A DNA stretch of 64,000 nucleotides from Candidatus Omnitrophota bacterium (GTDB lineage Bacteria > Omnitrophota > Gorgyraeia > Gygaellales > Profunditerraquicolaceae). Both the position numbers and the translations under genes were made by a program. Shown here in pieces: positions 10,101-64,000 of the stretch; the stretch's first letter is position 1; every line of letters starts with the position of its first letter. Under the pieces are notes generated by a model, which did not search any database, had not been told where the DNA came from, and saw only the letters and a program-made list of their open reading frames with translations. The stretch covers positions 13,849 to 77,848 of the forward strand of contig JBDRLN010000018.1 in assembly GCA_043812955.1 (NCBI GenBank), in the 5' to 3' direction.

Positions 10101-10142
10101 AAAAAATATTAGATTCCCAGCGGGAAAACTTTTAGTTGTAAC

Positions 10143-22605: not shown

Positions 22606-22697
22606 CAGTTTCTCCTAAGATATATTGCTTTTTTTAGAGAAATATATATTAACACAATAGTTTATTTTTGTCGAGTGTTCTATTTTTAACCCTTCGT

Positions 22698-22730
22698 CCA
22701 CCCCGTAGGTGTCTTACACCTACGGGGTGG
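22698..22730. repeat. Repeat family C hairpin, second perfect copy (CCACCCCGTAGGTG tctta CACCTACGGGGTGG)
   Basis: Identical 33-mer to 13092-13124, sitting in the divergent msbA / comFB-cheR intergenic region. Confidence 0.8.
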
Positions 22731-22787
22731 AGCTGGTTCATAAATATTCTTTTAAATAGTACATATTTATGCTATAATTTTATCCCT

Positions 22788-23889: not shown

Positions 23890-24165
23890 CTAAAGCGGGA
23901 TCGTGCTTACTTTATTGAATTTAACTCCAATTTCCCTTCCTTTAACCCAAACTATTTCTCCGCAGACATAAAAATGCCCTAATCCAGGCAGGATCTGAAA
24001 TTGGCCAAATATAGAACTACCCGGCTGCAATCCAGCATCTAAAACCACCTTCATCCCACCGGCGGAGATATTTAAAACTATACATTTTTCTACCTTACCG
24101 TCGCCTTTATGGTAAAACGCGCCGTCTTTTTTATCTACCCGGTTAAATTTACGCTTCTCTTTCAT
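23890..24165 (-). CDS. PilZ-domain protein (c-di-GMP receptor-like)
   Basis: 91 aa with RKFNRV (RxxxR) and LNISAGGMKV (D/NxSxxG) motifs. Confidence 0.7.
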   Translation of the reverse strand: MKEKRKFNRVDKKDGAFYHKGDGKVEKCIVLNISAGGMKVVLDAGLQPGSSIFGQFQILPGLGHFYVCGEIVWVKGREIGVKFNKVSTIPL

Positions 24166-24176
24166 TTCCCCTTCCC

Positions 24177-24887
24177 TTAACCTTTGAAATTCCTGGCCAG
24201 GCTCATTAGATCCGCCCGCTCCAGGTTAATTCCGCAGCGAAAACCAGAGGCGCCGGATCCTTCTGACCAGACTACCTCACCCCGGGTATAAAGAGGCTCT
24301 AGTCTATCCGGAATATTCAGCCACATCTCTAACGAAGTATTGGGTAATAATTTTTCTTGAGTAACCAAACCCATCCCCTTGGAACTTATATCTACTGATT
24401 TAGCCAGGCCTTCCCGGTCAGCGCTGGACTCAAGAAACCTAAGAGGCAGCTCCATAGGAAAACGCGCGAATATTCTTTTATCCTCAAAATTCTGGCTCTG
24501 CAGCATAACCTCTTCTCCTGTTTTAAGGCCTTCCCACCAACGCTTGTTTACCTCTTGGGGTGCGGATTTAAAAACGTATTTAAAAAGCTTATCTTTATCG
24601 CTATCCTTGATCTTGATAAAATAAAACCCGTAGTAGTTCCTGCTGTCTATAACCCTATGCCAGACCACCCAGGTTTCTATATCCAGGGTAAAATCATCGG
24701 CCAGCAAAATATTTAAATTCAGAAATTGGTCCTTTTCAATAACCTTAGGCCCCAGAGACAGTTGCAATCCTTTGAAATTAACATCGATCAGACGGCCATC
24801 GACAAAATCACCCTCACCTGCCAATTTTATTTTTATTGGGCGGCTGATCAGCCATCTGGTAATCTTGCGCTGCTCTTTAGTATCCAA
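24177..24887 (-). CDS. tandem PilZ-domain protein
   Basis: 236 aa with two RxxxR ... DxSxxG-type units (RKITRW...DVNFKGLQL; KRIFARF...VDISSKGMGL). It apparently starts with TTG, preceded by an AGGAG. It lies 71 nt downstream of the giant-gene stop on the same strand. Confidence 0.65.
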   Translation of the reverse strand: MDTKEQRKITRWLISRPIKIKLAGEGDFVDGRLIDVNFKGLQLSLGPKVIEKDQFLNLNILLADDFTLDIETWVVWHRVIDSRNYYGFYFIKIKDSDKDKLFKYVFKSAPQEVNKRWWEGLKTGEEVMLQSQNFEDKRIFARFPMELPLRFLESSADREGLAKSVDISSKGMGLVTQEKLLPNTSLEMWLNIPDRLEPLYTRGEVVWSEGSGASGFRCGINLERADLMSLARNFKG

Positions 24888-24957: not shown

Positions 24958-27900
24958 CTACGGCCTAATAGCAATAAATCTCATCCCTCCATAATAAAAA
25001 GTATTATACATATCATTAATCGCCTCGATTACCCCTATTTCTTTGAGGCTTTCTACATCAATCGGTTTAATATCAAGCCGGGGGTTAACACTTTTTAACT
25101 GTTCAAAATCAAACCTGCGGCCTTCATTTTTAACCAAAGCCAAAGCTATTGTTTTATATAAAATCCGGAAATTATTACTAATGGGTATCTTATTATAATT
25201 ATTTCTGCTAATTACCTTTGTTTTAAGCGATAATTCCTCCATAGCCAAATGATTAATTCCGTCGACATAACTCTTATCAACCATATCAGCCATCATAATA
25301 TCGTTTTCCGCCTCCTCAAATAACAGATTGAGTTGTGCCGCGTCTTCCTGGCTGAGGGCTTTACCTAAAATCCATCTTAATTCTACTTTAAACAATAATT
25401 CTTCAACCGATAACAAGGCCAGACTAGCTTTAAGATGAAACCCCCGGGCAAAATACCTGCTGGCATAAGAATCACTCTGCATTATCTCGGCAGTATATTC
25501 CGGAGTAAGCGCTAAGTTTATTTTTTCCTTAGCCTCGGAATATTTACCCTGTCGATTTAAGGCATCGGCTAAAATTATATGGCTTAAAACCAGCCAATCC
25601 TGTCTTTTATGATTCACCAACCATCTCTTAAACTTTAATAGTTCTTTTGCGTTATTTTCTATCTCCTGATTTAAATATACGCCTCCTACGTAGAACTTAT
25701 TTTTAGTCGACATTTTATCCAGATATTGGATTTTTTCAAAAATATACCTGGTCCGATTATCAGCGCCCTTAGACAAGCGGACTGCTTCATCAAAATCCGC
25801 TAGACACTCTTTAAGATTGCTTTTATCAAAATTAAGTATGGCCCGGATATAATAAGCTACCGGAGAAAAAAAATTCGGCGTATTGATAATCTCTTCGAGT
25901 TTATCAAAAGCCTCTTTAGTAAATCCTCTTTTTTTCTCGGCCAGTTTAAGATAAAAATCTTTCATTTTTATATCCTGCGGGTCATATTTAAATAGCTCGC
26001 CCAATAATCCTAATGCCAACGGATAATTCTTCGGTTCTCCTGATATAAGTTTTGAATTAATGATCCGGTATAATTTTTCCTTGTGCTTGTCAACAACCGG
26101 CGACGACGAGGGACACCCTTTCAGCCAATCGAGGGACACCCTTTCAGACAATCGGGATGATGTCCCCTGCTGTTTTACATCCAATACCATAGCCACCAAC
26201 GCTCCCATTCCTTGCCACGCTGGCAAACCTAATCGGGACACGCTGTCCGAGCCAAAGCGGACACTGTGTCCTAGAGCGGCCGGCGAGCTAGAACAAATAT
26301 TAGCTACTTCTGCAAGAAACCTTAATGTTTTTCTAAACATAATCTTGCCCACTCTATCCTTGCACCAAAGCGCCTTGCCAATATCCAAAGCCAAGGGATT
26401 ACAATCAAGCTTCCTTCTCTTTACATTAGAAAACCAGTCCTTCTGTAATTTGGCATAGTCAGACCCGGTAAATTCAATTTTCCCCATGAGCTTGACATTA
26501 ATAGTATTTAAGTCAAACTGTTCATCTTTGCTATTAAATACGTGGCCGTGGCGCCACATAGTTTCATCAAAGTATGTCCTGATAAACAAAATAACAGGCA
26601 AGTGTTTAAGGTCTTCTTCTGCGGCATCAAATTTATTTTTAATTTTCTTCATGCCTAATAGGAAAACCTCAAGTATCATCTCCTCTAAGAACTTCTTAAT
26701 ATTATTTTCTTCTATTCTGTTGCTTATAATATAAACATTGCCGTAAAATTGCTTAGAGTCGCTTTCCATTATTGAATTAAATAATGACTGCGGCATGCCG
26801 TGAATACCTATATCAGGCAATCTTTCAATTAATTTTTTTACCTGGATTTGATCTTGCCGTAGATTATTTTTAACAGCCGGCGAGCTTCCAACGCAAAGCG
26901 TATCGCCTGCCTGCCGATCAGGCAGTAATCCGTCACTTCTTCTGGCGGAAGACTGCGCCACCGGCAAGGCGGCCGGCGAGCTGGAGCGAAACGTACCCCG
27001 CGACGAGGTAGTTCCGTTTAATCCCGTATTATTTAAAGCCGCAAAGGGAAAGGTATATTCTTCTTCTATTTTCACCTCAAAATCCGCCAACCTCTCCTGC
27101 GCTTCTATAACGCATCCTATCCTGGAATTACTCTCATCCAGATCAACCATCTCTCCGACTAAAATTATCCTTTTCACTCCCAGTTCAAACTTTAATATCC
27201 ATCGTAACCTATCCCAATTTGTAGATAAGCCAACCGGGCAAGCCATCCCTTCCAATTCCACGGGCTCCAAATCATCTAAATAAGTATTAATTAAAATCCC
27301 GTATAAATTATATTTTCTAAATAATTTACCTGCCTCTGTCAATAAATCCATCTTTGGCTTTAACCTGATTGTACTTTTAATATAACGCTGGTCTCCTATC
27401 CCGGCGAATATGGGCCCAGGATAAGACCGGACACGATCGGATAACCTATGAATAAAACTCCGATAACCTCTAACGGCATTCCCTCTTATTGCTTTCCGCA
27501 GTATCAAGGGGACTCTCTTAAAATTCCTGCTGATATAATCATCTAACACATTTTCAAAAAATAACGGGTGGCTCCATAATATAATCTCGTGATTATTCCG
27601 CGAAATACTCCGCCGTAATTCCTCTGAGGCTAAAACTGTGGATATCGGGATAAGCCTTTGACCATTGCCTGCAGGCGGACTGGAAGGTTTAGGCCCTAAC
27701 CTATTGACGCTCCGATCAGCTACAAATTTGGAGGCAAACCCCAATAAAACCCTACCTAACCTAAGGAATTTAACCGGCGAGCTTCCTTTCGGCACTGGCG
27801 AGGCGGAGGTTTTTTGGACTAAGGGAACAGCTGTGCCTGCAGATTTACCCAGCTGATAAATATATCTAAAAGCCTCATCTGGATTGTCACAAGAACTTAA

Positions 27901-30900: not shown

Positions 30901-33900
30901 CATTTTCTCGCTAGCCATATTTTCTAATGCCTGCGGGCTTTGAACTGTGATGCCTAAACCGAATCCATTAAACATCTCGGCATTAATCCCAAACGTCCTA
31001 GCGGCAAAATAGGAAACAAAATAATCATTGCCGATCGAATTATATAGGACATTGCCTCCTAAGACCCCCATTTTTTTCAGGAGATGTAATATTGTAATAT
31101 AGTGTATAAGGGCGTTATCTAATCTTAACTTGTCATACTTAATATAGTCTCTAGTCCTTAACCATGTTAACGTTTGCCGGTCTAAATGAATTTGGTCAAG
31201 TATCCTTTCTATGTCGTTTTCGAAGAATAAACGGTAGAAATATTCCTCATCTAAAGGCGAGCTGGACCCATTTCCACCCCGTAGGTGGAAATGGTTTGCG
31301 GCTGGCGAGCTTCCGACACAAAGCCTGGCGCTTGCCTGCCGGTCAGACAGGGATCCGCCACGTATTGTGGCGCGGGGCTGAAGCACTGGTTCCTCAAACC
31401 AATTCACTATCAATCTACGGGTTCCCGGGATCATCTCGCCACCATTGATGAGAGGGCTCGATGTCGAGGCGGAACGCTTATCCATTAACATTACCTCCGG
31501 GAAACCTTCACTCAGGAATTTTGCCAAAGTTTCAACTGCGAGCTCCGCATCTTCGCCTTCTGCAATAAGCTTTACCTGGGCTGCGCTTATCCATGAATCA
31601 ACGATAGCATCCGCAACCGCTGCCAGCGAATCCAGTATTTTTTTAAGATTTACGGTTTCATTTTTATGTTCTATATAGATACGGGATAAAAATTTATTAG
31701 CTAGCGCCACTAAATTGCTGATATCATGTTCGTGTACTTCTTCGCAATTATCAACTATACATATTTTTTCTATCCTTTTCAGAGTATTTTCTTCAGGTGA
31801 AGATTTTACCGGCGAGCTGGATATAACAAAACTGCTACTATTTACTTCTGCCATTTTCACTTTATCTAATTTATAATAAGTTGTATATACGGGATCAGGA
31901 ATATTAGAAACAATTCTAAAGGGATCTGATTTTTGAAAAATTAATGGGATGCCTAATCCGGCATTATAATTTACTATTTTCAAACCTTGATGTGGTATAA
32001 ATTTAAAATCTCTTCCCCAAACCTTTATACTCCGCAAAATTGTTTTAGGTTTTATGCAAACTAAATTTGCAAATCCTACTCCTTCCGGTTTCAGCCTCCT
32101 TTTAAGAACATTGTAAACTTCCACTCTATCTTTGAAATATTGGCCAACATTATACCCAACCACAAAGATATCAAATAGGCCGGCCCCCAGAAATAATTGG
32201 CCCTCGTTCAAATCCCGCAAAATAAAATTATTCCTAAGGTGTTGAGAGTATCTTTCCGCCCTATCTAGGTCTATTTTCACTCCTAACCTTTGCATAAATC
32301 GGCCGGCTATACTATTTGCGTCTATTTCAACGAGATCATGCTTCGCTAAGGAGTAAAAACTTATCCCCTCTATATTTATTCTTTCTTTTACTTCCAGCAA
32401 AAACATTAATTCAAAAAGTTCATAACCCCTGCCCGGGCCGACCCATAAAATACTGATTTCGGGATTTCTTTTCATACTTTTTTTAATTCTGCTTAAAATT
32501 GACTTATAGAGATGTCCGTCGAATGCTTGGTTAATCTCCCTGAAAAAGTGGCTAATATAACCTTCAGGATAGTTAATCATCGGCGAGGCGGCGGTATTGT
32601 TCCTTATGGCCGAATTGCGACCGGAATGAATCGTTTGATTGATGGATTCATTTTTTGACTCAATGCCAGACAATGGGCTAGATACAGCGTCTACATCTTC
32701 TTTTTTGCTTAAATTTGAAGATATCGATGAAGTAAAGATAAGCCTGTCCACCCAGAAAAAAATCGCCGCGCCGATTAAATTAGCTATGACCGTCGCAAAT
32801 AAGCTGACGCCTAACCACCAGACAACCAACCACAAAACAGGGGTACTCAACTGCCAACGGATAAGATAAAGAATAAACCTTTTTATTGATAGCCCGCTGT
32901 TCGTTTTTTCTGCCGGATTGCTGGATTCTTTCTCTACAGGCGAGGCGGCGGCATATATGTTATTGATTATAAAACTGGCTGAATAAACGGCAGGGTTTAA
33001 AAACGCAGCTTTAAAAATTAGCAGCGGCTTTGGACCTGCCCTGATAGGACAGCTATCCATCAGCGGACTTGAACCGGAGTTTTCCGTAGAATTATCGGTT
33101 AATGTAATAGCCTGGGCCAAGCTCTTGCCTTCCCAAAGTAACCTGGCTACAAAATATTTGGAAGGTACATCGTATGGAAAATAATAATCCAGCGCTCCAT
33201 ACAGCATCTTTCCGTATTTATAAGTCCAAACCGGTTCTCTTGATAGGTTATCCCATAAACTCACCCTGCTCGCATCCAGTAAATATTTCTGCAATATCCC
33301 TACCGGGACAGCGCTGGCGATCAATTCACCTTCTGAGATATATTTACCTTCGGTTTCGGAAGATTTAATCATCTGAGATAATAACCTTTTTTCTTCTAAG
33401 CGTATAAGATTTATTAAATTCGGCAATCCTTCCCGATGAGCCTTTCTCAATTTTCCTGGCCATAACGCGTGAATAAATTCATGGGCAACAGTTAGTTCGG
33501 AATTTAACTCTACTAAATCTTTTGACCAAAGTTTTCTCCGTTTAACCAATATAGTCCAATTGCCAAGCACGGACTTATAAGCTGTCCCTAAACCCGGACA
33601 ATAACCTCTACCTCGACAAAAATCATGTAGCCGATATTTTACATGCATATAAAAATACAAAATAATCGTAGAAATAGCGATGCTGATTAGGATAGAACTA
33701 AATTCGTTGTCCGGGATTAACCCAAAAGGCTTAATTATAAATTCAGCATATGCCCAGAAAACCGTAAAAGCAGGCAACCCCAACAATAAAAACCCGGCTA
33801 AAAAAATAACCGACTCGCCGATAAAACCTACCATGTTTAACCATGAAGTACGCGGCGTATACGGTCTAACCGTAATTGCCGAAATAAATTTTTTAATTTC

Positions 33901-36900
33901 CTCGGTTGGTATCTCCGGATATAGGCGCGCTGCTATCTCTTCCATTTTTTTGCGAGCAGATTTAGCGTATTTTTTTGAAAAAGATTCTAAACCAATCGCC
34001 TTCTCAATAAATGAATCGATCTTCCGCGTCCATAGCGGCGCAACTCCAAAAACTCTATTTGTTACCGGCGAGCTGGAACAGCCTTCAGCTTCGGATATTT
34101 TCTTCTGGCTTAGGCTGGCCAAATCGGCTATAAGCCGATCGAGTTCTTTTTTAAAAGCTTTTCCTGACTCCTGACTCCAGAAATAATTAAATACCTGGAC
34201 TCTGGATAAACCATTTAGAATATCGCAAAGCATAACTGGATCTATTTTCATTAATGGCTTAAGCCGGCAACAAAGATAGAGGTTAATATCGCTAATACTC
34301 AAATTATGAGCGCCTAACCACATCTCGCTATCCCGGATTAACAAACCTATCTCATGCTCTATCCTCGCTCGCCTATCAACTATTTCAATAGCCCTTAAGA
34401 AAATATATAATTTCTTAAAATATTCCCCCAATTTTAGCTGTAAAGCATTCTTTTGTTCTGCGCTGACGGTTTTCTCGCTACTTTTGATATATTGTATGCG
34501 CAGACGAACATTATTAATTAATTCAACCAATATCTCGCCGGGATTATAAATCTTTTCCTGAAAACCAAACTGGGGATGATTTAAAAACTCTTTTAAATCA
34601 CTGGGATAATTTCTGGCCCCAAGGCGTAAATTACTAGATCTTGCTATAACTAAAGCTTTCTGAATAACTCTGTTGTTATCCGCTGAATCTACCATTGTCA
34701 TAACAGAATTTAAAATACCGCTAATACTTACATCGCTACTCCCTTGAAAAATTTCACTCAGTAGCATTTTTTGTTTTTCCCAATCAGCGCCTATTCTGTT
34801 AAATGCCTCTTCAATTAAACGATTAGACAACAAGCTATTACTCTTAGCAGCCGGTGAGCTGGCAGAAACCATGCTTACTCCGATAATTACATCGAATTTC
34901 GCCCCGCTTAACTGTCTTATTTTGGCGTTGATTATTCTATCCATATACCGGTAGTTCTCGGGTAAAAACCTTATCCCATACTTTTTCTCTTCTTCTCTCG
35001 CAAATGCCAAGGTGGTATCGCTACGGAGAAAATTTTTCATCTGGGCTAAGGGGAACTTCGCAGAGAATCCCTTATTTTCAGTAAAAATAAATTTTGGAAC
35101 TCTGCGCTGCCTAATTCCGGAGCCGTTAAAAATGAAGGCTTTGATTGTCTTTACCACATAACCGTCATCTGCTTCTCCAAAATATACGATATTCCTTATA
35201 TTACTGAATCTGGGTTCGGTAAGCACCTGAAGGTGGGGCCTGCGCAATTTCGAAGTTCCGATTACCTGTTGATATAGCTTACGCAGGGTAAGATGGAATT
35301 TAAATTCAAAAACAGTATTATCGCTGATCGCGTCAAATTCCTTGCCCGCCCCCCTCTTATCATAAAAAATCGGGTTAACTGATTGCACAATGCCCAAACT
35401 TATACCTTCTAAAGTAGTCCCTCTTTTGATGATTGCCTCATAAAGCCCGGATATTTCTCCGGCTAGACCCAGGACCTGTCCATTGCCGCTTTCTCCCTTA
35501 TAAACCCCTTCTGCCATTTTAGTAATGGCATTATTAACAGCCGCTTGGACGACAGATTCATTTTTACCCTTATAAACAAACAGCTTCTGCATCTTAAGCC
35601 ATAATCTGTTAAAAGAGAAATCTCTAGCGGCAAAAGCACTGATTACCAGAAGGCATTCTTTTAATTCTTCCGGCAAGGAAGAAGTTTTTATCTGTGTAAT
35701 ATTTTCAAGAAGGCTTTCAAGCGGCGAGGCGGCCGGCGAGCTGACGCCCTCATGGTATAGCCACAACAAATCACTAATTATCTCAGCCTGCCATTCAGGG
35801 ATTAGCTTAAGAAATGACGCATGTGTTACAATTTCATCTGGGGAATTAATTTTTGCTATGCTGTTATCGGAGAGTTTGAGGTTCGTGGTAATATTTAATA
35901 CCAGCTCCGGAGGGGCGCGGGCTTCTTGAGCCAGGCATACTGCCAGCTTCTGCAAACCAGCTCGCGACCCCAGAGCAATCCTACCTTCAGCTAAAATCAC
36001 GCTATATTTACCATTATTCAATTTAAACTTAATCTTAGCAAACAATTCCTTGCCGTATTCCGTTTCTGCCTCCTGCTGATCCTGCGCAGATACATCCAAA
36101 TACGATCTGATCGGCGAATTTACGCCGTAGACGTATCCGCTTCCGGCGGTGAACTGTGCCGCCGGCGAGGCGGCGCCTTGGCGCAAATCAATAAATTCAA
36201 ACCCCTTAGAACTAGCAATATTGGGTAATCTCCAGGGTGTGTTATTATCAAATGGGGCTTGCGGGTTTACGGCTAAATCTAATACCATATCGAACTCGGT
36301 TTTAATCGTACTCCTCACTAAGCCCAGCTTGCTCCAAAAGTCAAACTGACATGGCAGAGCCTTTAAAACAATAAACTTTTGGAGATTTAGACTATGCGCT
36401 TCCTCTATAATTAATGAGCCTATTGCCGAAAAAAGCCCTTTTTCCTGAAATGACGGACTAATATTGATATCCGCACGCCGGTTATCAATAACCATAGCAG
36501 CTTCTCTTTTATCCACGCGGTAATGACAGTAGCCGCAGAAAGGTCGTTCTGTTTCTATAAATTTATATCCTTCTCCCTGATAAAGTTTATCTTGATTAAT
36601 CCTATGTAAATCAATACTGATTAATGCTTCGCTGGGTATTTCCTTTTGCCTTAATGTAAAAAGCTCTTCTTTAATTAAGACAACCAACTGCAACACGCCG
36701 AATTGTTCTTTTTCTAATAACTCAGCGTTATCTAAACTAATTTTAACTGGCGAGCTGGAACCCCTGGAGCCCGATACCGGCAAAGCAGCAGATGATCCGG
36801 CTAGATAGACGGATTCAAAATCCGACTTTCTTTTGCCGCTAGAATTAGTAAACAAGGCTTTGGTGATTGATTCTAAACTAAGGCCGCGGCCATAAAGACA

Positions 36901-39900
36901 GTAGCCCACTCCTTTTTCCAACCTCTCTTCTTTAATACCGAAATGCCGGAATAAACCCGGCTGCTGCAGATAAACATAATATTCATTTACTGAACGCTCT
37001 AAAGCTCTTCTTAACATACAATAAATAAGAAAAGAGCCCAATCCTTCATTCCAATAATCTTCTTTTATCTTTAAATAACTTTCTCGCTCGTGCCCCATTT
37101 TGAGCTCATTTATAAGAATATAAAATAAGATATTTCCTACTCGCGATTCTTTAAAATCAGGCACGTCAACTTTTAGAATTAAATAATGAAATTGTTCACC
37201 TTGGCTTAAATTGATAAAGGTGCGCTTTTCTCTTACTATAAACATCCCTTTCCTGTTTTTTATGCCTCCAATTAGCCTGCCGTCTATCGCCTTAAGCGTG
37301 ATCTGCCTTAGCGCATACTCAAGGCCGTTTCTTTCAACGCCTGAATTGCCCGCCGGCGAGCTGGAAATTGTATTAAATTCTTGGGGACTAAATAGAATCT
37401 TTACGTCCGCGCCCCGATACAAACAGATCCCTTCTCTCCTTCTTATCGTCCGTCTGTTTAACTCTAAACCATACTGTTTCTTATAAATATCTTCCGCTAA
37501 ATCAGCAACTAAATAAGGGTTCCCGGGAAGGAAGTAGTAATCTGGGCCGAATTCTACTAAGATATCGATCATATCTATAAACAGCCTATTTAAACCCGCG
37601 CTATTTACGGCTTTTCTCAAAATAAAAAACTGGGCATAGGCATATTTATGAAAACCTGCGTCATAGATTGTGTTTGAACTTATAAACTTAAACGCTGATT
37701 TAAAAATACAATATGTGAATTCATTTCTTTGCTCCTGTCTAATCTTTAGTTGATTTAGTAGGACAGCCGCTGTAAATTCTGCAACAAATTCCTGTAATCC
37801 GGCAAAGGCTCTATATTTTGAATCAACGGAAAGCGGATTAGAATTATCCTTTAATTTTACAATAAACGATTGATTAGGGAAAAGAGCGTAAAGCCAATTA
37901 TGGCCTATTTCATGCGCGATTATTCTTAGGATTCCTTCAATACCATGGCTCAAATAATAGCCCTTAAGCCTGGCATAGTCATATTTAAAATTCGCGTTGG
38001 CTGTTCCACGATAAGAACCTATATCTAAATTCTGTATAATCTTTTGCGTAATACGCCTAACTATCGCGGGCGTAAATAAGGTATCTAATGACAATAACTG
38101 TACCGAAAGCGCAATATTCCACCCCAATAACTCTTCTTGAATCATTTTTAGCGTATTGTATTTAAAATACCGGTCTATCTTTTCTCGATACTCCATAGAT
38201 ACAAGTTTCTCGTTCAAATCACTCCTTACCAGATCGATTGAACGCCGTAGCAAAAAATTGATCCGCGAATTAATTAATAGGATTAGTTGATGGGTTCCAA
38301 CTGGCCATTTACCAGTTGCCGGCGAGCTGGCCTGCGGCGCCAGCGGCGAAGAAACAAATTCAAATTCTGATGGGTTTCTTTGGACCTTGATTCTTACACC
38401 AAGATGATCCGAGGCCAAGAAGATTCCTCCTTCATTTTTTATAACTTTTAATCCCTCAAATAGTTTCTTTAAACGTTCCTGATTCACTTCATCTGTTTTA
38501 AATAAAGAACGATACTGGGATATATACTCGTTAAAGGTGGGTTTAATGGTAACCGTATCAACAAAATCTCCATTCTCTGCCCAACGAAACACCCTAAAAA
38601 CAAGATTATAAATATACCAAAGAAACATTATCTCTGGATTTATCGCTGCTAACTCATCATCTATGACTTTATAACTACTCTTAAGCCTCCCATCGGGAAA
38701 TTTTATTATCATTTTATTAACATACCCTACAAATTTGCTTACCCTCCATTCAGACACCGGCGGGCTTGAGTCGAGAACCTCATTTTTTTCTATTTCTACA
38801 AATATTTCCGGGTATAGTTTCTTTAACCATGGCGTAATTTGTACGTCATTTTCTTTATAGATCACCTTAAATCTCTCTCCCAATTCTTCCGTAAATGGCA
38901 ATTGCATGCGGCCATCCGCCAAAGAATGGCCCCTAAGTATGAGCTTAAGCGCTGCGTCAGTAAGTTTAAGGCTAACTTTCGGATTTTCATTTTTATAATA
39001 TAGACTTAAAAGATACCAAACTTCACCGATATATATCGGAATATTTAAAGATTCATGATAAGACATATCTGGCTCTCTTTTTATTACCTCATCCGCGCAA
39101 TAGTTAAACATATCCACAATTAAATCTTCCGGCAGCTGACATAGTATAACGAAAAGTTCTTTATGTACGCTTTCACTTTCTAAAAATAGATAATATATAT
39201 TACTAGGATCAATATAATAATAAGCTTTCATGACTTCCCTTACCCACCTTGCCGTACTTTCATAGTCACCCCCTATCTTAAGATTGCGTAGTTTATCCTC
39301 TATTTCTTGAATAGATATTCCTTTGGGTGGAAAAAGATACCGTCCCTCCTTTAAAACGCTCATATCAGGCGTTCCCCATTTCCATTCCCGCTGCCGCCAA
39401 TAGGGATGCATATTAGTCTCAACCGGCGAGGCGGCGGTTTCACTCCTGACCCTGCTTTCATCCGCCGGCGAGCTGGCATAAAGCGTAGATGCCGGTATTA
39501 TTTTTCCGTCTACGGTTGCATCATTACCGCTAACCAATAAAGCAGAATAATCTCTCCGCAGAGAACCAGTAATGGCTCTGTGAAGATGTGCCGGCAAAGG
39601 CACCTCTTCACCCTGTTCTATCAAAACATTCGTAAAAAATATGGCTTCTGCTCTGTGTTGCGTTAACATGCCACTCTGCGCCGGATCTAAGAGATCGATA
39701 TATTTCGGCTCTACCAACGCGCGGATGTTGTTTTTCAAACGACAATAACGCGTGTCGTCCTTTACGATTTCGAAAAAGATATCAAAGTTTTCTTGTGTTA
39801 TACACTCGCAGACATAGGCAAGCTTATAAATACCCATTTTTACCGCGTATAAAAGCGGTATATTTTTATCCCAAGCCTCTATTCCTATGCTCCATGGTAA

Positions 39901-51900: not shown

Positions 51901-54900
51901 GATGAAAAACTTTCTATTGCTTTTTAATTCTTTAGGCAGGAGACTAAGGAAATTTGTAAGATACGCCTTGTCAGCCGGAAATAAGCTTAAACCCAGGAAT
52001 ATCTCTTCTTGCGGATATTTTACCGAAAGAGCTACAACCTTGTTGGCTAAAGCTTCTGCGGATAAATTAAGCTTATTGGCATCAATAAATTCTACCGCGA
52101 TATCATTTGCTTTTAAGGAGGCGCTGATTCTGGCGAGGCCTAAAGGTTTAACGCTTCTAAGGGAGGCGTGATCGGGATTTATTAAGATAACTACGGGGCT
52201 TGAGGATGGCGGCGCATGCGCAAAAAATCCTTTTTTCTCATTCAACAGCTGATTTAAAAATCCCTCTAAAATAGGGGACGTTTCTATTTTCCTTTGCGCC
52301 GGGGAGCTGGATTTTCTGGCAGTAACTAGGTATTTATTCTCTAGGCTTACCTGTGAATAATGATATACTGCGGGATAGTCTACAGGTATATTCTTACCCT
52401 TAAATAATCTAACGCTGGATGCTTCAAAACCAGCCCCTTTTATAATAACAGCTATCTCTTCGGCTTGAAACCCGTTATCCCGGTCATTGTCCACACTCAT
52501 AAACGCAACTCCGCCTCCGAGGCTGCATACCCGTAAAGACTCCTGTAAAGCTTCTTTTATTGATCCCAATCCTACAGTAGGATTAGGATAATTCAAGGTG
52601 ATAAGGTTAAAGGTGCCATCCCGGAATTCAAGACAGGACCAGTTCATATTCCATATTAAAACAAGGTTCTTCTCCGCAGCAAAGCCGGATAATATCTTTT
52701 CACCGTCATTATCAATGCAAGTAAAACGCGCTCTTTTCCCCCACAGCGTATACCTGGCATCCCTGGCAAAATCGCCAAACCCCGCCCCGATGTCTAAACC
52801 CCAGAGCAAACGCAAGCCCGTATACCTAAGAATATGGTTACAAAATTCGGTGAAAATATTCCAGCCTGCTTTGCCTCTTTTAATTTCAATCCGCTGGTTA
52901 ATTACATACGCTGCCTGCCTGATAAACTCCTGCTTACGGGGGTCGCTTTCGCTTGCCAGAAGAGACTCTAACTCTCCAAGGACGCTCCTACCGACTAAAT
53001 CCACCAAACAAATCATCGCCCGATGGTAAACATATGGCATATCGCTGGATAAAAACAGCTCCAGAAGAATATGTTTAACCTTACTCTTTTGAGTAGAAAC
53101 CTCTCTTTCGCAAATAGCCGCAATCGCATCAATTGATTTTTGCCTAAATGAAAACACGGGATAACTGGCAAATCCGGCAAGAGTACTAAAAGAACCAATG
53201 CTACCGCAATGCTTGAGAGCGTTAATAAATTCCAAAGTTAAGTTAAAATATTTAGAGAAATTACCATCTCTATGTATAGCCTCAAGCGCTTTTAATAACA
53301 CCGCCTCTAAACTAAGGTCTACGCCTTTTACTATAGCAATTTTAGGTATAACAACTTCAAGATACTGTAATTTTTTGATATTCATCCGCACCAGCCCGGA
53401 GGGATTCCTTAAAAAATTTTCCAAAACCGGCGAGGCGGAAGTTTTTTGGACATTTTGTCTAAGGAAATCGGCGAACTGCTTTATTAATCTCCCTTCCCTG
53501 AAGAATCCCAGAAAAATTTTTCCGCTAAGCTGATTATCAATATTATCCCCTAACTCAAGGTATTTATAAGCATTGTCTTTACTTAAAATAAAGTAGCGCG
53601 GAGCAAAGCTCAACAGGACAAGATTTGATAACAAACAGGCGGTACGCTTATTACCTGCAGCAAATAGCTTAAGATGGGTTAATTTAACAAAGCATCCGGC
53701 AGCCAGCAAAAACGACGAGTCAGGACCTAAATTATTTCTGTAATTTCTCATAAACCAATTGGCAAACCTCCTGACTGAGCGGGTAGCGCCTTTATGGTTA
53801 ACCTCTCCGGCAGGCCTAATTGCCAGATTTAATTGATTTAAGAACACGCTAAATTCACCCGCATCCTTAAACTTGGTTTCAATATAATTATTAATGAATT
53901 TACATCCAACAATAAATCCGGCAATTATTTTTATATCCGGGCTAAAGTGTTTAAAAAGTAAATTTTTAGCGCCTTGATTAATCTCCGGCCAACTAATTGA
54001 TAATTCGCTAAGCTTATCGAAAACCAATCCTAAATCTATTCTTCCTTTGAGCGAACCCGCAGAGAGCATACTAAAACAAAAATTACTAATCGCGCGCAAG
54101 GTTCTTTCATCTTTTCTCCGTAACGCGCTTTCGTGATCAACGCCTTCAATTCTTCTTACTGCCGGCATGCCAGTATCCTCGGGATCAAAACTGATCAATT
54201 CAGTTATGCCGTCCGTATTTGGGGTAGCTAAATGATCAAATATTTTTCCAATCAGCCCTTTCTTCACTTCGGGAATAATCCTGCCTTCTTTAGTAAAAGT
54301 ACTGATGATTAATGCTTCCCCTTTTCCCCAATGCCTAAGCCTCTTTTGAATATCTTCTAAAAGGGCCGTATTCTCCGGCCTCCCCTTTATAAGCTGGCGG
54401 TGTATTCCCTTGCGAGGATCCCTTATCTTAGCTAAAGAAAGTAAATCCCAAAATAAAGGCATCTGCAACCTCATCCATCGAGATATTCCTTTACTGAAAG
54501 AGAACGCCGGATTAACCAGCACTAATCCATCCACCCCTTTATTTTTTAAAAATTCGCTGTTATAGGAGGCTAAAACCCCTCCGAAACTTTCGCCGATTAC
54601 TATTATCTTAGGATCTTTAGGATAAGGTTGAGTTTCAAAAATTCGCTCCATTATCGGGATAAAAATACTTTGGCTTATATCTTGAATGTTCATGAGTATA
54701 TTCTTTGGCTTAAAGTCAGCGTGAGGAAAAGAGATTACCGCAAATCCCAGCCCTAAAAAATACCTTAAGAATGAATCTTCCTGCCAAGAGATAAGATCGT
54801 AGTAGGGTAGATATAGCTGGCGCATCTTAGGGCGAAAGATAGACCGCAGGAAATTATAGGCATCCAACACCCTCTTACCGTGAACATATATTATAGTTAT

Positions 54901-57900: not shown

Positions 57901-60900
57901 GATGCGCTGCGGGTTGTATTCTCTATCTACTGGCCAGGCGGGAATACTGCTAAACCGGTTCAGCAAAGACCGTAACCAACGCCAAGCTTGTAGCGGCGAA
58001 CTAAAGCCTCTTTCTTTAGCCAGCGGCGAGGAGGCAGAATTTATACCAGCTACAAGAATACTTTCTTCAGGCTGAGGGCTTAAAACAATGAATTTTCCTC
58101 TTTCCGGGCCACTGCTTAATATTTTCCCTTTTTGATCAAACTGTTTATTCAAGAAAATAAGGGCATTCTGAGTAAAGTAGGTGCCTTCTTCTAAACCTTG
58201 AATATCTTCAAACCCTGCAAGCGGGAGCTTTTCCGAGAAAACGCTTTCTGCCAGAAGCAAAAAAAACAGCGTCGGTGCTTTTAAGAATACCCGGGAATAT
58301 AAACACGCGCTCATCCCCCTGCGAGGATACTCTGCGCATTTTTCATGCCTTATCGGGTATTTAGAACATCCGGAGGCAAAGATAAGCCCGCCTGCCGATG
58401 AATAATCAAAAACTGCCCGAATAGCCCAGCAAGGAAAATACGTATCGAAATCATTTCCTTTCTTCCCGCGATAAATACCCAGCGCCATTTCTCTTCTAAC
58501 AACCGGGCAATCCCTGCCGTACTCCTTTTTTAAAAATCTTCTTATTTTAGGATAATCGTTGAATCTAAATTTTCCCGGGATATCCTGCTCCAAGAAACAA
58601 CAAAAACTATCTACGCAGCGCCTTCTACCTAATATCTCTGCGAACCTTAAGTCTACCAGGCCTTCTTGGAAGTTTACTCCGGAAAAATTATTTGGCGAAA
58701 AGTTAACCGGCGAACTGGCTTCCTTTTTAATAAGCTCCTGGTTTTTAACCAATTCCGGATAATTAATTATTTTAGGGTTATTTAAATCGGCTAGGAAATC
58801 TTTATATCCCACTACTCTTATCAGGCCCTTTTGGCCCTGATAGCAAGTATTATACATATGCACAATTACTTTTCCCGAGGGATAAAGAAATATACCGATA
58901 CGTGAAATATCTATTGATTTGGTTTCTTCTATCTTAAAATTCTCCTTTAATACATATTTCGTAGTTAGTATTTTTTTAATGTCCGGAATCCTTGATATAT
59001 CCTCGGATTCATCTGTATATAACATAAGTATCCTGGTCATCGGATCCCTGATCAACTCTAATATATATTCCTGGCTTAAATCATACTTAAACAAATCCCA
59101 GATATCGGTATCACTAGAATACCTCCTTAAGTATAAAACTTTGTTCCGGCTATCGGCTATAACCATATCTATGCATTGAGATAGAAACTCAACCACGGGT
59201 CTATTCTTAACCTCAACAGGATAATCTAAATAGCTCATTCTTCTGTATCCGGAAAGGTCGACCAAATCTTTCGTTTTAATTATTACCGGAGAGCTGCCTT
59301 TGTAACCTTGCCACGCTGTCCCAGCTAAAGCGGACACGCTGTCCGAACCAAAGCGGACACTGTGTCTTAGAATCAGCGGCGAGGCAATAGCAGGTGCCTG
59401 AAAATTATACGCTATTGGGCTTGAGCCGGATCGAAATTTATTTTCAGCCCTGCGTCGCTTTGCACCATCAGGGGCCTTCCCGGTATTTTTTATAAATTGA
59501 CCCGGAGAAGGAAAGCCTTTATCATTTACATAATGAGATGAGAGATAGTTAATGCCGCCGTGCCCGGGAACAAAAATAAACTTTTTTCCGCTATTACGGA
59601 AGATATTTTCTTTAACCCAGTGTAAAATTAAACCTAACTCGTTGGTAAGCCTGAAAAAATCTCTTTCCGACAGTTTCAAAAAATCTTTCAACGCCCCGAA
59701 TTCTATTAAAATGGCATTATAGCCCAGGATTTTTGAAACTTCTTCTTTCCACTCGCGGACCGAGACTTTCTGATTTTTAAGCTCCACCACATAATTACGG
59801 CTATCCCGCGCGAAAAATACCTTTAAACCGGGATCAGTATTAAAATGGCCCTCTGCCACTAAACTGTCGCTACCATATTTATCTTTAATCAATAAAATCA
59901 GATTTTTAAAATAATCATTGCTCTTTAACCCACTGGGCGGCTCATAATATTTTTTCCCAAATATAATTGATAACCTTTTAAACAAATGATGCGCAACTAC
60001 TGCCTCAGGTATCTCGGATAACCCAGCAGCTTGAATATACTGTTTAGTTTCATCAATTAAACCGGGCAAAACGGAATCTTCTGAAACTGACGATTTAGCT
60101 TCGATCAGCGCCATATCCGCTGCGGGCTGATTATTTAAATTATTATCCTTACCATCTGTAAATCCCAGGTTAAATAAACCTATAGTTAAAATAACTGCCA
60201 GGTTAACAGGCCTAAAACTTGCCGGCGAGCTGGCTGTTTCTTTTAAAATTCCTCCTATAAATTCATCCTCAAAATACATATCTGTGTCAATTCTGTAAGG
60301 TAGGTTTTCTTTTTTTAGATGCTTTCTTAAACAAGCGGTGTCTGCGCTGCCGGAGAGAATAACTACTCTGGGCCTGAAAAATCTGGTTAAATCAGCTAAA
60401 TCATCATTCTTAATGCAATCTTCAGATGGCCCGACTAAACAAGGAATGCCAAAATGTTCCAAATTAGCTACTAAAATATCAACGCTATCATTAAATCCGC
60501 TTTTTTTCTTTAATTCGGAGAATAAACAACCCATATATTTAAAGCTGACTCTTTCTTGCGGCAAGGCGTTTACTTTAATAGACTCAAGGAGAATTCTCTT
60601 AGACTCTTCATGCCTATCCAAGGCGTATACTTTTTTAGCCCCTAATGATAAGGCTGCGAAAGTTATCACTCCGTCTCCGCAGCCGGCATCTACCACCACT
60701 TTATCTTTAATTTCAAGATGCTGCATCCCCAGCAGGCATCCCGCTGTCCAATGTTGAAAAGTCCTGTTATCATAAGCATAATCTTCTTTGCGCATATTTA
60801 ACATATCTACGCCAATGGCTATTAACCCCTGTTCGGTGAATTTCATCAAGTCGAATAAATGCAAATAATAATTATCAATAATAACTATTCGTCCCGAACG

Positions 60901-63900
60901 ATAAAAATAAGTTTCCATATTACTGGAATGAGGCCCAACATGAAGGTTCACTCTGTCTTTATGCCCGTTAAAATTTACGTATCCCGCGTAACGGATGTCT
61001 TCCTTAAAACCATAATCACCCAACTTATTCGCTAAATCTGCCTCGATCGCTAAGGCCTGTATTTCATCAGCCGGATTTAAAGATTGAGCAGAAGCAGCCG
61101 GCGAACTAGACCATTTTCCACCTACGGGGTGGCGCCCACCTACGGGGTGGAATAAGATATAATTCCTTTGCACCGGTGAACTAACCTTATCGCCCAATCT
61201 TCCGATCGGACTATAAACAACTTCCGAGGCTTTGGCTATTCTTAAGACCGCATTCACATCTCCTGCTATACGATAAGATTTTATCCCATATTTAATCCTG
61301 GTTTTTTTTACGGCCCAGGCAGCTGCTTCTAAAACCTGCCTTCTTCTTAAATTTACCTGCTCGATAGAAAGCCATTTTCCGGTTAGGGCCTGTTCAGTTT
61401 CAAAACTGGATACAATGACTCCGCCGGCATTACTCAAGGTATCAGGGATCACTATAATGCCTCTTTCGTATAATTTAAGCTCGGCATCACTGCTTGTCGG
61501 ACCATTAGCCAGCTCTACCACTATATCAGCCTTGACCAAATCCACGTTATCCCGCCTTAACTGATTTTCTAATGCCGCCAGGACTAAAATATCAACCTGC
61601 GCCCCGATTATCTCAGCAGACCTGCCAGACAAACCGATCCTCCAATCTTTAACATCGAATTTTCCTAACATCTGCGCGTTGACCCTCCCCTGCAGAAAAT
61701 AATTTACCAGAGCTTCTCCTTGCAGACGATTATTTGCCCACTCCACCATAGGCGTTAGGTCTTCCAGGCTAAAACCTTCCTTCTTATAAAGAACGGCTGT
61801 ATGGTCGCTGATATATTGGATAACCGCCCCTTTTTTGACTAAATCTAAAGCTGCATATGAAGCAACATTGCCAAAACCCTGTATAGCCACGGTCTTTAGC
61901 CTTAAACCATCGACTATAACCCGCATAACATCCACTCCGCCAAAACCTGTTGCCTCAGTCCTACCCCAGGAACCGCCTAAATCAATTGGCGTAACCGGCT
62001 TGCCGGTATAAACTCCCAATAGAGGGAATGAATGACCCATCTTTGAATAACGGTTGACCTCTTTAAGCAAAGGCGTATCGGTAATGTCACGCTCTCCTTT
62101 ATTTATTATCCCGATCAACTCCGCGTATAGCTCCGGGTAATTATTCTGTATTTCACTGGTTTCTTCCAGAAAATATTTTATATATTCATCGGCATACCAA
62201 GAGAGGATCCTACCGTTTGTATTCATATCCGGGGCAGGTATATCTATATCTATACCGACCTGGTTATTCCTGGCTAACTCCCGGCTATGTAACCTGGAAA
62301 TCAAAGCTAAGTTATGCGGATCGCGCCAATTTTCGCAATCCTTTAAAACCAATTTTCCGGACTGAGCGGTTAATTCCCCGATAAAAACAATCCCTTTCCC
62401 GCCGCCCAGATTTAAACCCGCCTGTGAATTCTTTAAGGACATATCCAGCGACAGAGCATTGCATAATTCTTTAACCCACTTAATAATGAAATGTTTTATT
62501 TCCTCTTCCGTTGCCCGGAGTCCATTTAAACGCTCAATGGCTTGAGCGAATAATCCCGAACTTTCATTCATCAGGGTTGAGCCCGTGATATAACGTATTC
62601 CGCCTTTGCCCGGGCCCAAAACTACATTATTCCTAATTCTTACCTGATATATATTAGCCTGGTAGATAGAGTAATTCTGCCTTATCAATTCCGCGCTATA
62701 CCAGCTATCATATACATTAAAAGGAATCTTTAGTTGATTAATTATTCCCAGATTTACGCTATCTACGTAAGGCCTGGTTGCTTCCAGACGCTGCAGTGTA
62801 TCCTGCCAATAAGGATTAACCGTTTCCTGAATAAGTTTCTGGACTGCGGATTGAATGGAAGAAGAAGCAAGGACCCAACTTTGGCTGGCAAAAGGGTACA
62901 GATTTAAATAATTATGGTTTAAAGAATTAACTATGCTCGAAAAACTTATTCCCCGCGTTAATTCTTCTGGCAGAAAAATTTTACCCTCAACATCGATTAA
63001 GCCATTGACATTAGTATCAGTTTCCTGCATCAAGAGATTAAACTTAACGGATAAATTAAAGTTAATTGATCTTATATATTCATATAACTCAAGCCTGCAT
63101 TCATTAGTTTTAACTTCAATAATTAAATCTATGTCCGCGCCGGGATAGATATCTTCAAAGTGCTTCACGGAACTGCCAAATAACCAGATTTTTTTAATAT
63201 CGTCATAACGACTAACCAGCTCCTCGGTAATTAATATTGAGAGCGCATACCTTAATATACTATGCGCCGGTTTATAGCGGCTTGGGTCATCTAAAAGGTT
63301 TAACTCTGAAATTAACTCCTCTGCGCCATTTAAACGTAATCTTTGAGAAGTCTTAAACAAAGCCTTCTGCCATAATTTTTCCACCCTCATTGCTATAATT
63401 GTAGTTACGTCCGCGCCTACGGGCGAAGAGGAGATTGCTTTACCCGCAGAAGAAGAAAATCCGGGCTTTTTCGCCTGCAATTCCCACATTTTGTATATTT
63501 CTGTAATTAGGCCATTGACTTTTGCTTTTTTTATTTTGACAATAGTAAAACCTTTAAATAACTTCTCCAGAGATTCCGGTTCAAAAAACCGGTAAGGCAG
63601 CCCATCAAGAATGTAGATCTCTTTATCGACCGGTAAACCTTGGCCATATTTACCATCAGCCTGAGAATATACTATTGCAAAAACTCTTCCCCTCGGCTTA
63701 AGCACCCGCCAAATCTCATCAACTATACGCCTCATCATCCTATCGTCAAAAGATATCAGGCTGCAGTTAGCGTAAACTATATCAAATTCTCCATTAGAAA
63801 ACGGCAAAGGTTCTGTTAAATCCTGGACCTGGGCAACCAGCCTGCCTGCAATACCCTGCCGGATTGCCTCTTTAGATACCCGTTCTATGCAAACAGGGGA

Positions 63901-64000: not shown

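Follow-up and report, generated by a model that had tools for sequence, protein, structure and literature searches.

We analysed a 64,000-nt stretch of DNA (hereafter the window; assembly GCA_043812955.1, contig JBDRLN010000018.1, positions 13,849 to 77,848 of the forward strand), most of whose minus strand is taken up by one giant gene encoding a protein punctuated by a short, recurrent linker. This strand is free of stops from 63999 down to 24961, a run of 13,013 codons closed by a stop codon at 24958-24960, while the other five frames across the same 39 kb (41% GC) contain 455-1264 stops each. A codon model trained on 20 flanking genes was applied to the open reading frame (ORF) in 43 consecutive 300-codon windows, and the ORF frame outscored both shifted frames in every one of them. 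The whole ORF is coding, and no stretch of it is open merely by chance. As the frame reaches the window edge, its 5' end is missing. The syntenic gene in an independently assembled relative (JBGGGU010000001.1, a 443-kb contig) is called at 46,785 amino acids (aa), meaning that no more than the 3' quarter to third of the gene falls within the window. The initial annotation, which had proposed a single ORF of at least 39 kb and over 13,005 aa with a larger true size, was therefore correct on both counts.

24958..63999, minus strand: giant ORF, 3' part; 13,013 codons plus stop, 5' end beyond the window

The sequence derives from a metagenome, and both the 12-13-nt linkers that recur within the gene and the mosaicism of its modules between contigs, described below, could in principle mislead an assembler. 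Nevertheless, an assembly artefact, whether a chimera of unrelated fragments that met at short stretches in common or a series of genes run together by sequencing errors, appears extremely improbable. The linker cores are far below assembly k-mer length, and error-driven fusion of some 40 genes without a stop or frameshift over 39 kb is implausible. Collapsed repeats had been named in the initial annotation as a point to check; however, the longest internal DNA repeat is 191 nt at 79% identity, self-BLAST of the protein yields 10 short paralogous pairs, and Tandem Repeats Finder returns two 48-nt arrays and no others in the ORF. Long or near-identical internal DNA repeats of the kind that signal a collapsed or chimeric assembly are absent from the ORF. 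Finally, independent assemblies carry giant ORFs at the same locus, including that on the 443-kb contig.

The giant gene belongs to an uncultivated Omnitrophota bacterium, as had been suggested from gene content. The 20 kb downstream are gene-for-gene collinear with a metagenome-assembled genome of Candidatus Omnitrophota (JAHKAP010000035.1) at 85-96% amino-acid identity, and the neighbouring ComFB-CheR protein is 100% identical to P0010, a 366-aa protein encoded on an 87,877-bp NCBI Omnitrophota contig, which is very probably the source contig and would itself truncate the giant gene. On the JAHKAP contig, too, the end of the sequence truncates the giant gene, of which 7,224 aa are present.

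An unbiased scan of k-mers in the giant protein ranked Ser-Ser-Pro (SSP) first among enriched tripeptides: it occurs 53 times against 3.1 expected (Poisson P ~1e-45), almost always in the form [S/A/G]SSP[V/A/L/I]. A variant, AASP, adds 11 sites to give 64 linkers in total, whereas the flanking proteins contain SSP once in 7,584 aa. Cutting the chain at these 64 sites leaves 42 segments that are 80 aa or longer (median 231 aa), and the Pfam domains fall between the sites: an HPr module is bracketed by linkers at aa 10733 and 10847 (114 aa apart), a radical-SAM (S-adenosylmethionine) module begins 17 aa past a linker, and a dehydrogenase ends 14 aa ahead of one. Both of the AlphaFold2 (AF2) models are disordered at the linker, and several modules match complete free-standing proteins, namely glutamate dehydrogenase, HPr, a B12/radical-SAM enzyme, SAM methyltransferases, a nucleotidyltransferase and a putative zinc protease. 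At least 42 gene-sized modules are strung together in the product, most of them "dark", that is, without recognizable family.

Modules that are gene-sized, and in some cases equivalent to free-standing proteins, might suggest that the ORF is really a stop-less operon whose modules are each initiated independently. The sequence around the linkers makes such internal translation starts very unlikely. A Shine-Dalgarno-like sequence with an in-frame start follows only 5 of the 64 linkers, compared with 7.4 at random positions, and methionine is depleted in the 30 residues past linkers (16 against 24 expected). The flanking genes, by contrast, have recognizable Shine-Dalgarno sequences.

The linker is conserved not only as a peptide but also as a nucleotide string, with the DNA consensus (T)CC-AGC-TCG-CCG-G in an invariant codon phase. 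Its 9-nt core, AGC-TCG-CCG, encodes 17 of the 53 SSP sites (P = 1.6e-24 given the codon usage of the gene itself), and all 17 copies lie on the coding strand within the gene, where 0.32 would be expected.

31810..31818, minus strand: 9-mer linker core AGC-TCG-CCG (Ser-Ser-Pro), example; the outermost sites are 26281-26289 and 60223-60231

TCG is the rarest serine codon elsewhere in the gene (9%) but accounts for 62% of codons at the second-serine position of the linker. At the 21 SSSP sites the successive serines are encoded by TCC (15/21), AGC (14/21) and TCG (17/21), and this preference of three serines for three different codons points to a nucleotide string rather than to selection at the tRNA level. 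Synonymous third positions carry 0.6-0.8 bits within the linker, as opposed to ~0.03 bits in neighbouring codons. The same consensus is found in five other genomes, only inside giant genes and absent from their flanks, although the modules between these shared linkers have diverged to 45-80% amino-acid identity, with dS from 0.2 to more than 0.9.

A fixed codon string containing a rare TCG followed by proline could act on translation, by imposing a pause in which one module could fold before the following one appears. The over-representation of TCG, the slowness of proline in peptidyl transfer, and the position of the linkers at domain boundaries that are disordered in the AF2 models are all in keeping with such a pause. 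However, the use of three codons for three serines, together with CCG being the commonest proline codon, does not resemble simple selection for rare codons, and a pause leaves unexplained why evolutionary breakpoints fall at linkers (see below). On balance we consider it unlikely that pausing accounts for the linker.

Comparison with P0001-P0005, five incomplete giant proteins found in other Omnitrophota assemblies (one of them labelled Smithella and probably mis-binned), shows where the breakpoints lie. The modules that these proteins have in common with the window protein are 45-80% identical to it but arranged in another order; P0003, for instance, carries in succession the equivalents of aa 5007-5396, 9419-9722, 1-194, 2678-2848 and 12370-12571 (all aa numbering refers to the visible 13,013-aa protein). 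The ends of the homologous blocks lie within 12 aa of a linker in 24 of 30 informative cases, against an average of 3.4, and never more than 12, over 10,000 trials of random placement. The Smithella label belongs to an 11-kb contig, L006 (JBAZGU010000077.1), whose protein P0004 contains SSP linkers and a 63%-identical methyltransferase module; L006 is probably mis-binned.

Turnover is equally evident at the locus itself. Between the window and two relatives, L007 and L009, the flanks are 85-96% identical, but the last ~3,000 aa of the giant proteins share only the C-terminal TPR-like module, at 75% identity to the window for L007 and 65% for L009. The exception is a CheR-type module (aa 7862-8175), which is also present in L007 with 79% identity at a different position. 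The dS of this module relative to L007 (39400-40420, aa 7861-8206) is 0.18, compared with 0.49 for the C-terminal module of the same genomes, and this low value suggests a more recent transfer between lineages. An exhaustive search of 1.84 billion representative sequences with the last 1,200 aa gave only 37 hits, mostly long proteins or fragments, in which the TPR-like module is usually C-terminal. A homolog search with the C-terminal 5,000 aa at E <= 1e-10 gave no hit, and we considered whether this part of the protein might be an orphan; we rejected this, as P0001 and P0003 match the same region at 195-354 bits (BLASTP). Across seven shared blocks, three of which have no Pfam hit, dN/dS ranges from 0.14 to 0.59, against 0.03 for one flanking gene; the modules are thus under purifying but relaxed selection, and the protein evolves ~5-8 times faster than the flank.

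Searches against Pfam, NCBIfam and PDB sequences, together with hydropathy, self-comparison and structure prediction, identified the following modules.

63550..63999, minus strand: class-I SAM methyltransferase, domain aa 1-150 of a module at aa 1-190 (Pfam Methyltransf_25, 52 bits)
62977..63222, minus strand: Pol-beta nucleotidyltransferase, aa 260-341 (PF18765, 27.1 bits against a cutoff of 26.9; GS...DIDL motif intact)
61222..62640, minus strand: Glu/Leu/Phe/Val dehydrogenase, N and C domains, aa 454-926 (Pfam, 159 and 52 bits)
60301..60747, minus strand: PrmA-like SAM methyltransferase, aa 1085-1233 (Pfam PrmA, 41.7 bits)
54436..54630, minus strand: alpha/beta-hydrolase-like, weak, aa 3124-3188 (Pfam Hydrolase_4, 22.4 bits, below the cutoff of 27; GESFG motif)
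51112..52152, minus strand: B12-binding and radical-SAM enzyme, aa 3950-4296 (Pfam; NCBIfam BchE-like, 125 bits)
47833..48993, minus strand: internal TPR-like module, aa 5003-5389 (self-BLAST, 32-39% identity to its paralog, the C-terminal module)
46717..46974, minus strand: HD (RelA/SpoT-type)-like, weak, aa 5676-5761 (NCBIfam NF008303, E = 1.5e-3; H...HD motif)
44425..44688, minus strand: SAM methyltransferase, aa 6438-6525 (Pfam Methyltransf_11, 24.9 bits against a cutoff of 21.2)
41359..41514, minus strand: transmembrane (TM)-like hairpin, aa 7496-7547 (Kyte-Doolittle window >1.8)
40651..41046, minus strand: HemK/PrmC-like SAM methyltransferase, aa 7652-7783 (Pfam MTS, 43.9 bits; NCBIfam PRK14968, 76.9 bits)
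39619..40077, minus strand: CheR-type methyltransferase, aa 7975-8127 (Pfam CheR)
36757..37362, minus strand: duplicated "dark" module, aa 8880-9081 (paralog at aa 11221-11415, 29755-30339, 55% identical)
32683..34074, minus strand: membrane module or modules, aa 9976-10439 (two TM-like helices, HEFIH, then another TM-like segment)
31510..31770, minus strand: HPr (phosphotransferase system phosphocarrier)-like, aa 10744-10830 (Pfam PTS-HPr, 32.3 bits against a cutoff of 23; NCBIfam)
27784..28953, minus strand: zincin-like HExxH module (HEMAH), aa 11683-12072
24961..26106, minus strand: C-terminal TPR-like alpha-solenoid, aa 12632-13013 (AF2 pLDDT 72; Foldseek TPR hits)

The initial annotation had read much of this by eye, and its strongest calls stand. 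The dehydrogenase is complete, matches PDB glutamate dehydrogenases at E = 2.8e-37 and retains its GGGKG and GFGNVA motifs. The radical-SAM module matches OxsB in the PDB at E = 1.9e-21 and has an intact CxxxCxxC motif, in the form CPGSCAFC. The nucleotidyltransferase is supported at the threshold, by a score barely above its cutoff, and the two TPR-like modules are supported by AF2 and Foldseek. Of at least six proposed SAM methyltransferases, five are supported by profile hidden Markov models and two further matches (aa 3735-3829 and 5506-5572) are weak; the module at aa 1-190 is the one most widely shared with other giants, with 59-63% identical copies in P0001 and P0003-P0005. The alpha/beta hydrolase and HD calls keep their motifs but remain weak, and the proposed membrane-spanning segments correspond to five TM-like helices, apparently paired, in three places (aa 7496-7547, 10054-10120 and 10387-10422), seen by hydropathy. 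The HPr-like module, absent from the earlier list, was found by Pfam, and its histidine aligns by eye with His15 of HPr.

Other calls were not supported. No match was found for an isochorismatase-like module, and the duplicated module that had been read as two GNAT-like copies gave a Pfam GNAT E-value of only 0.08; among PDB entries, a three-sequence profile of it matched no acetyltransferase. As had been noted, there are three HExxH motifs (0.17 expected), but family and fold support exists only for the zincin-like module at aa 11683-12072, which has free-standing homologs of 245-460 aa and an invariant HExxH, LP..LLA.AY and downstream Glu/Arg-Lys. The other two HExxH modules have no family support, and the membrane module or modules at aa 9976-10439 have no family match. 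Common descent of the three HExxH modules is not supported, since hhalign aligned only 12-18 columns around the motif with a probability below 5%. The view of the protein as a metabolic toolbox holds insofar as heterologous enzyme-like modules are strung on one chain; however, ~80% of the visible protein has no Pfam match, so the description fits only a minority of it. Neither adhesin or RTX Pfam families nor long tandem arrays of one repeat domain occur in the visible part, in agreement with the earlier reading. Condensation, adenylation, carrier, ketosynthase and acyltransferase domains are likewise absent from the visible part (Pfam E <= 1, NCBIfam E <= 0.01), which does not read as a non-ribosomal peptide or polyketide megasynthase.

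The composition of the gene shows several local peculiarities. The giant gene has a lower GC3 (0.38) than the flanking genes (0.47; 742-22605), with similar GC1 and GC2, indicating that its codon usage differs from that of its housekeeping neighbours. Between 40001 and 42000 the GC skew is ~0 and the AT skew positive, the rest of the gene lying at about -0.15; this stretch contains the TM hairpin and one methyltransferase module. Among the 16-33-aa spacers between two linkers, some have a high GC content (0.61-0.69, compared with 0.41 overall) and encode hairpins that are close to perfect, one of them with an 11-bp stem.

31268..31294, minus strand: GC-rich perfect hairpin, 11-bp stem, in a 16-aa spacer between two linkers; CCATTTCCACC-TACGG-GGTGGAAATGG

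Further spacer hairpins are TCCGCCAC-AATAC-GTGGCGGA and CCTGCCTG-ATCGG-CAGGCAGG. Folding z-scores below -2 were obtained for 4 of 18 short spacers and 7 of 120 controls (Mann-Whitney P = 0.047), and the spacer hairpins, kept in frame, could act in RNA stability, pausing or recombination. We discarded the idea that linkers in general carry hairpins: perfect hairpins show no enrichment over the gene as a whole (27 against 21±5), and the 10 of the 27 that lie near linkers do not differ significantly from the 26% expected by area. A repeat family, D1, comprises three copies of a ~107-nt mini-element of the same GC-rich hairpin kind (40397-40503, 31292-31398 and 26867-26973). Spacers adjoining linkers also contain 23-nt tandem duplications (26107-26154 and 59312-59360), and a second repeat, D6 (26210-26287 and 59306-59383), is 78 nt long and 82% identical, with small GGACA...TGTCC palindromes. 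The D6/tandem spacers fall at aa ~12571-12632 and 1539-1565, and a similar peptide (...SVSRL.LPAWQG...) occurs in P0005.

Downstream, the order of genes is shared with two relatives and confirms the reported proximity of a Kdo/lipopolysaccharide (LPS) operon and two PilZ genes. The giant gene is followed by genes for PilZ proteins of 236 and 91 aa and, on the opposite strand, ComFB-CheR, after which come an MsbA-like ABC exporter, PfkB kinase, KdsB, KdsA, KdsD, KdsC, LptC, LptB, trigger factor and ClpP.

23890..24887, minus strand: two PilZ genes directly downstream of the giant gene (Pfam PilZ; both kept in L007 and L009)
22668..23888, plus strand: ComFB-CheR fusion gene; the true start is probably later than annotated, the identical protein P0010 having 366 aa

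The PilZ pair and ComFB-CheR lie directly 3' of the giant gene in L007 and L009 (10001-12098), and the ComFB-CheR fusion has more than 3,000 homologs, of which the named ones are mostly from Omnitrophota. These neighbours could be a regulatory link between the giant gene and cyclic di-GMP or methylation. In another contig, L004, a single PilZ gene follows a small ORF beside a giant-gene fragment (L004 8959-9651), and downstream of these (L004 9813-15349) lie a sugar ABC transporter, with a substrate-binding protein and two permeases, and a GH2 glycosidase. This carbohydrate context agrees with the literature, while that of the window is LPS/Kdo instead.

Taken together, we consider it probable that the window contains the final 39 kb of a true giant gene whose gene-sized modules are joined by a conserved linker at which modules are gained, lost and exchanged. 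In this model the linker would serve as an in-frame recombination junction, keeping the frame open whichever module is gained, lost or swapped. Frame-preserving exchange at linkers would allow complete turnover of the interior between close relatives, with the flanks and the C-terminal TPR-like module remaining constant, and would explain both the extreme length and the rapid divergence of the gene. The linker may additionally be a processing site or a pause site. As module order is not conserved, the modules would be expected to act independently. The presence of enzymes that use SAM, NAD(P), cobalamin/Fe-S and phosphotransfer, together with only about five, apparently paired, TM-like helices, suggests that most of the visible part is probably tethered to the membrane on its cytoplasmic face rather than displayed outside.

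Several points weigh against this model. Six of the 30 block ends lie away from linkers, and no SSP junction accompanies the rearrangement of the nucleotidyltransferase and glutamate dehydrogenase modules relative to P0002. RecA-dependent exchange would have little to work with in a core of 12-13 nt, and no recombinase, integrase or mobile element is encoded in the 25-kb flank. The nucleotide conservation of the linker could also result from repeated common descent or gene conversion, without present function. As regards location, the TM calls are based on hydropathy alone, and the 5' two-thirds of the gene, with any signal peptide, SecA-like or protease domain and the full architecture and topology, lie outside the window. 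For many such proteins, moreover, published work leans towards an extracellular or predatory role.

That role underlies a different explanation, in which the protein would be a single uncleaved surface or "coat" effector, a scaffold, exported or threaded through the membrane, for attachment to prey or host and for attack on cell walls, as has been proposed for Archaeovorins, with the linkers as flexible hinges. By analogy with published giants this is conceivable: it is a published hypothesis for Omnitrophota, peptide counts are raised in attached V. archaeovorus cells, TM-like segments are present, relatives carry glycosyltransferase, GH94 and HEAT modules, and L004 has its GH2 and sugar transporter genes downstream. 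However, the modules that can be identified here need SAM, NAD(P), cobalamin and Fe-S clusters or phosphotransfer, all cytoplasmic chemistries, and the visible 13 kaa contain no adhesin, lectin, dockerin, glycoside hydrolase or SecA domain (the last searched at Pfam E <= 1). The flank likewise encodes LPS/Kdo housekeeping functions, and not a type II secretion system, pili or glycoside hydrolases. We regard an exported effector as possible but less likely than not.

Punctuation is not confined to the SSP lineage. Four distant giants, P0006-P0009, share only the dehydrogenase or a methyltransferase with the window protein. At the peptide level, P0006 contains GxSLG 15 times against 0.11 expected, and P0007 and P0009 contain R[SA]E[VIMLA]R 19 times each (0.14 and 0.11 expected, respectively), in all three with module-like spacing; no punctuation motif was found in P0008. 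A hand check excluded the idea that SSSPV, RSEVR and GASLG stem from a single DNA motif translated in different frames or from the opposite strand.

Short, strict and lineage-specific motifs (SSSPV, RSEVR, GxSLG) are typical of protease sites and unusual for passive linkers, and a serious possibility, if less likely than not, is that the giant protein is a polyprotein whose linkers are protease recognition sites, with cleavage freeing ~40 or more separate proteins. This would be compatible with module exchange at the linkers, to which it would add a mechanism. It would also account for modules equal to whole proteins, such as the HPr between linkers 114 aa apart and the zincin-like module with its 245-460-aa homologs, and would fit the lack of conserved module order. 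Dehydrogenases of this type are hexameric, an assembly that is hard to picture within a chain of tens of thousands of residues, and the literature itself raises cleavage as a possibility. The protease may be the embedded zincin-like module, an N-terminal C39 or S8 domain beyond the window, or a trans-acting enzyme. Conversely, no protease with known specificity for the linker motif has been identified, the other two HExxH modules are without family support, and selection on a protease site leaves the synonymous conservation of the linker unexplained.

Giant ORFs are known to be common in Omnitrophota (Seymour et al. 2023, PMC10066038), where genes of up to 85,804 aa occur and an enzyme-rich type has been named Archaeovorins (West-Roberts et al. 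2023, 10.1101/2023.11.21.568195). A recent catalogue lists 916 proteins of at least 10 kaa and defines a class, termed "multi-enzyme metabolic cluster", in which methyltransferase, radical-SAM, GNAT, HAD and HD domains abound (Nielsen & Lui 2026, 10.64898/2026.06.07.730766). The gene described here belongs to that class: it encodes at least 13,013 aa, has TM-like helices, and is tiled by many distinct Pfam families, none dominating by copy number (ELFV_dehydrog N and C, Polbeta, B12-binding, Radical_SAM, PTS-HPr, CheR, MTS, PrmA and Methyltransf_11/25 in the visible part). With Archaeovorins it shares the phylum and TM regions (five TM-like helices by hydropathy). The size set for Archaeovorin genes is >90 kb/>30,000 aa; the visible part here spans 39 kb (13,013 codons), and the syntenic ortholog measures 46,785 aa. 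As in other published Omnitrophota giants, methyltransferases and radical SAM are prominent, TM segments make up a few percent, and most of the protein is dark and poorly conserved between genomes.

The visible part also differs from the published giants. Of the Archaeovorin domain set, the visible part contains methyltransferases (five solid, two weak) and one zincin-like module, whereas the relatives P0001 and P0004 carry GT1 and GH94. The SecA-DEAD, C39/S8, glycosyltransferase, glycoside hydrolase, NUDIX and HEAT domains typical of published giants are not in the visible part, where Pfam and NCBIfam found no glycosyltransferase, glycoside hydrolase or NUDIX. In Archaeovorins the SecA match is a divergent DEAD or preprotein-binding domain and the C39 or S8 peptidase is N-terminal, near a signal peptide, a region that here would lie outside the window. 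Published giants are flanked by type II secretion, pili or glycoside hydrolase genes, and this one by LPS/Kdo and PilZ genes. The initial annotation, as we read it, had treated such a gene as near-unprecedented, but the class was already described in preprints of 2023 and 2026, and the new point is the punctuation and the cassette architecture. The cleavage points of giant proteins have been stated to be unknown (West-Roberts et al. 2023, 10.1101/2023.11.21.568195); two papers describe cleavage points or protease motifs as unknown while raising cleavage as a possibility. We found no mention of a linker, punctuation or polyprotein for these giants in the literature searched, the coverage of which was incomplete, and claim no priority.

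Better-known systems offer partial parallels. Vibrio MARTX (multifunctional autoprocessing RTX) toxins combine RTX repeats with an inositol-phosphate-activated cysteine protease domain that cuts between effectors; their modules vary between strains through recombination and work independently once released. They resemble the giant protein as very large chains of unrelated effector or enzyme modules with varying content, although this likeness is one of function alone: neither RTX repeats nor such a protease domain were found in the visible part, the giant is ~10 times larger, and its processing is hypothetical. Viral polyproteins of the picornavirus/potyvirus type likewise consist of one ORF with gene-sized units, a short lineage-specific motif and, in the present case, an embedded protease candidate, but their module order is fixed, whereas here the gene is cellular, order is not conserved and cleavage is again hypothetical. 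Integron cassettes and phase-compatible exon shuffling provide a parallel at the DNA level, with interchangeable units bounded by a short conserved nucleotide site. As in integron arrays, content varies among close relatives while the ends and flanks stay fixed, and as with symmetric-phase exons, a constant junction codon phase preserves the frame. In contrast to integrons, there is no integrase in the 25-kb flank and no attI or attC, and the units are parts of one ORF. Where integrons have an attC hairpin at each boundary, the giant gene has a 12-13-nt in-frame string, with 4 of 18 short spacers folding unusually well.

A broader and more speculative proposal, which we put forward with low confidence, is that Omnitrophota giants are "punctuated cassette arrays", in which a lineage-specific, phase-locked linker would be both a DNA exchange junction and a polyprotein cleavage site for an embedded or partner protease. 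The linker would be TCC-AGC-TCG-CCG-G, translated as SSSP[V/A], in this lineage and RSEVR or GxSLG in others. If the linkers were mere hinges, the finding would reduce to another member of a published class. Whether these genes yield one chain or many, where their units begin and end, and how they originated and diverge so fast are the open puzzles of Omnitrophota giant genes. The punctuation offers a way into each of them. It divides giant proteins into units that structure prediction can fold one by one, it specifies exact neo-termini to look for in proteomes already available, and it implies that structural variation in long-read metagenomes should consist of in-frame insertions or deletions of whole modules bounded by the motif. 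Shared modules also explain why full-length giants look "sequence-unique", with ~80% in singleton clusters in the 2026 catalogue. Should the cassette-array proposal prove true, the giant gene would amount to a collection of captured genes under rapid reshuffling, and its product would be the cellular equivalent of a viral polyprotein, with turnover like that of integrons.

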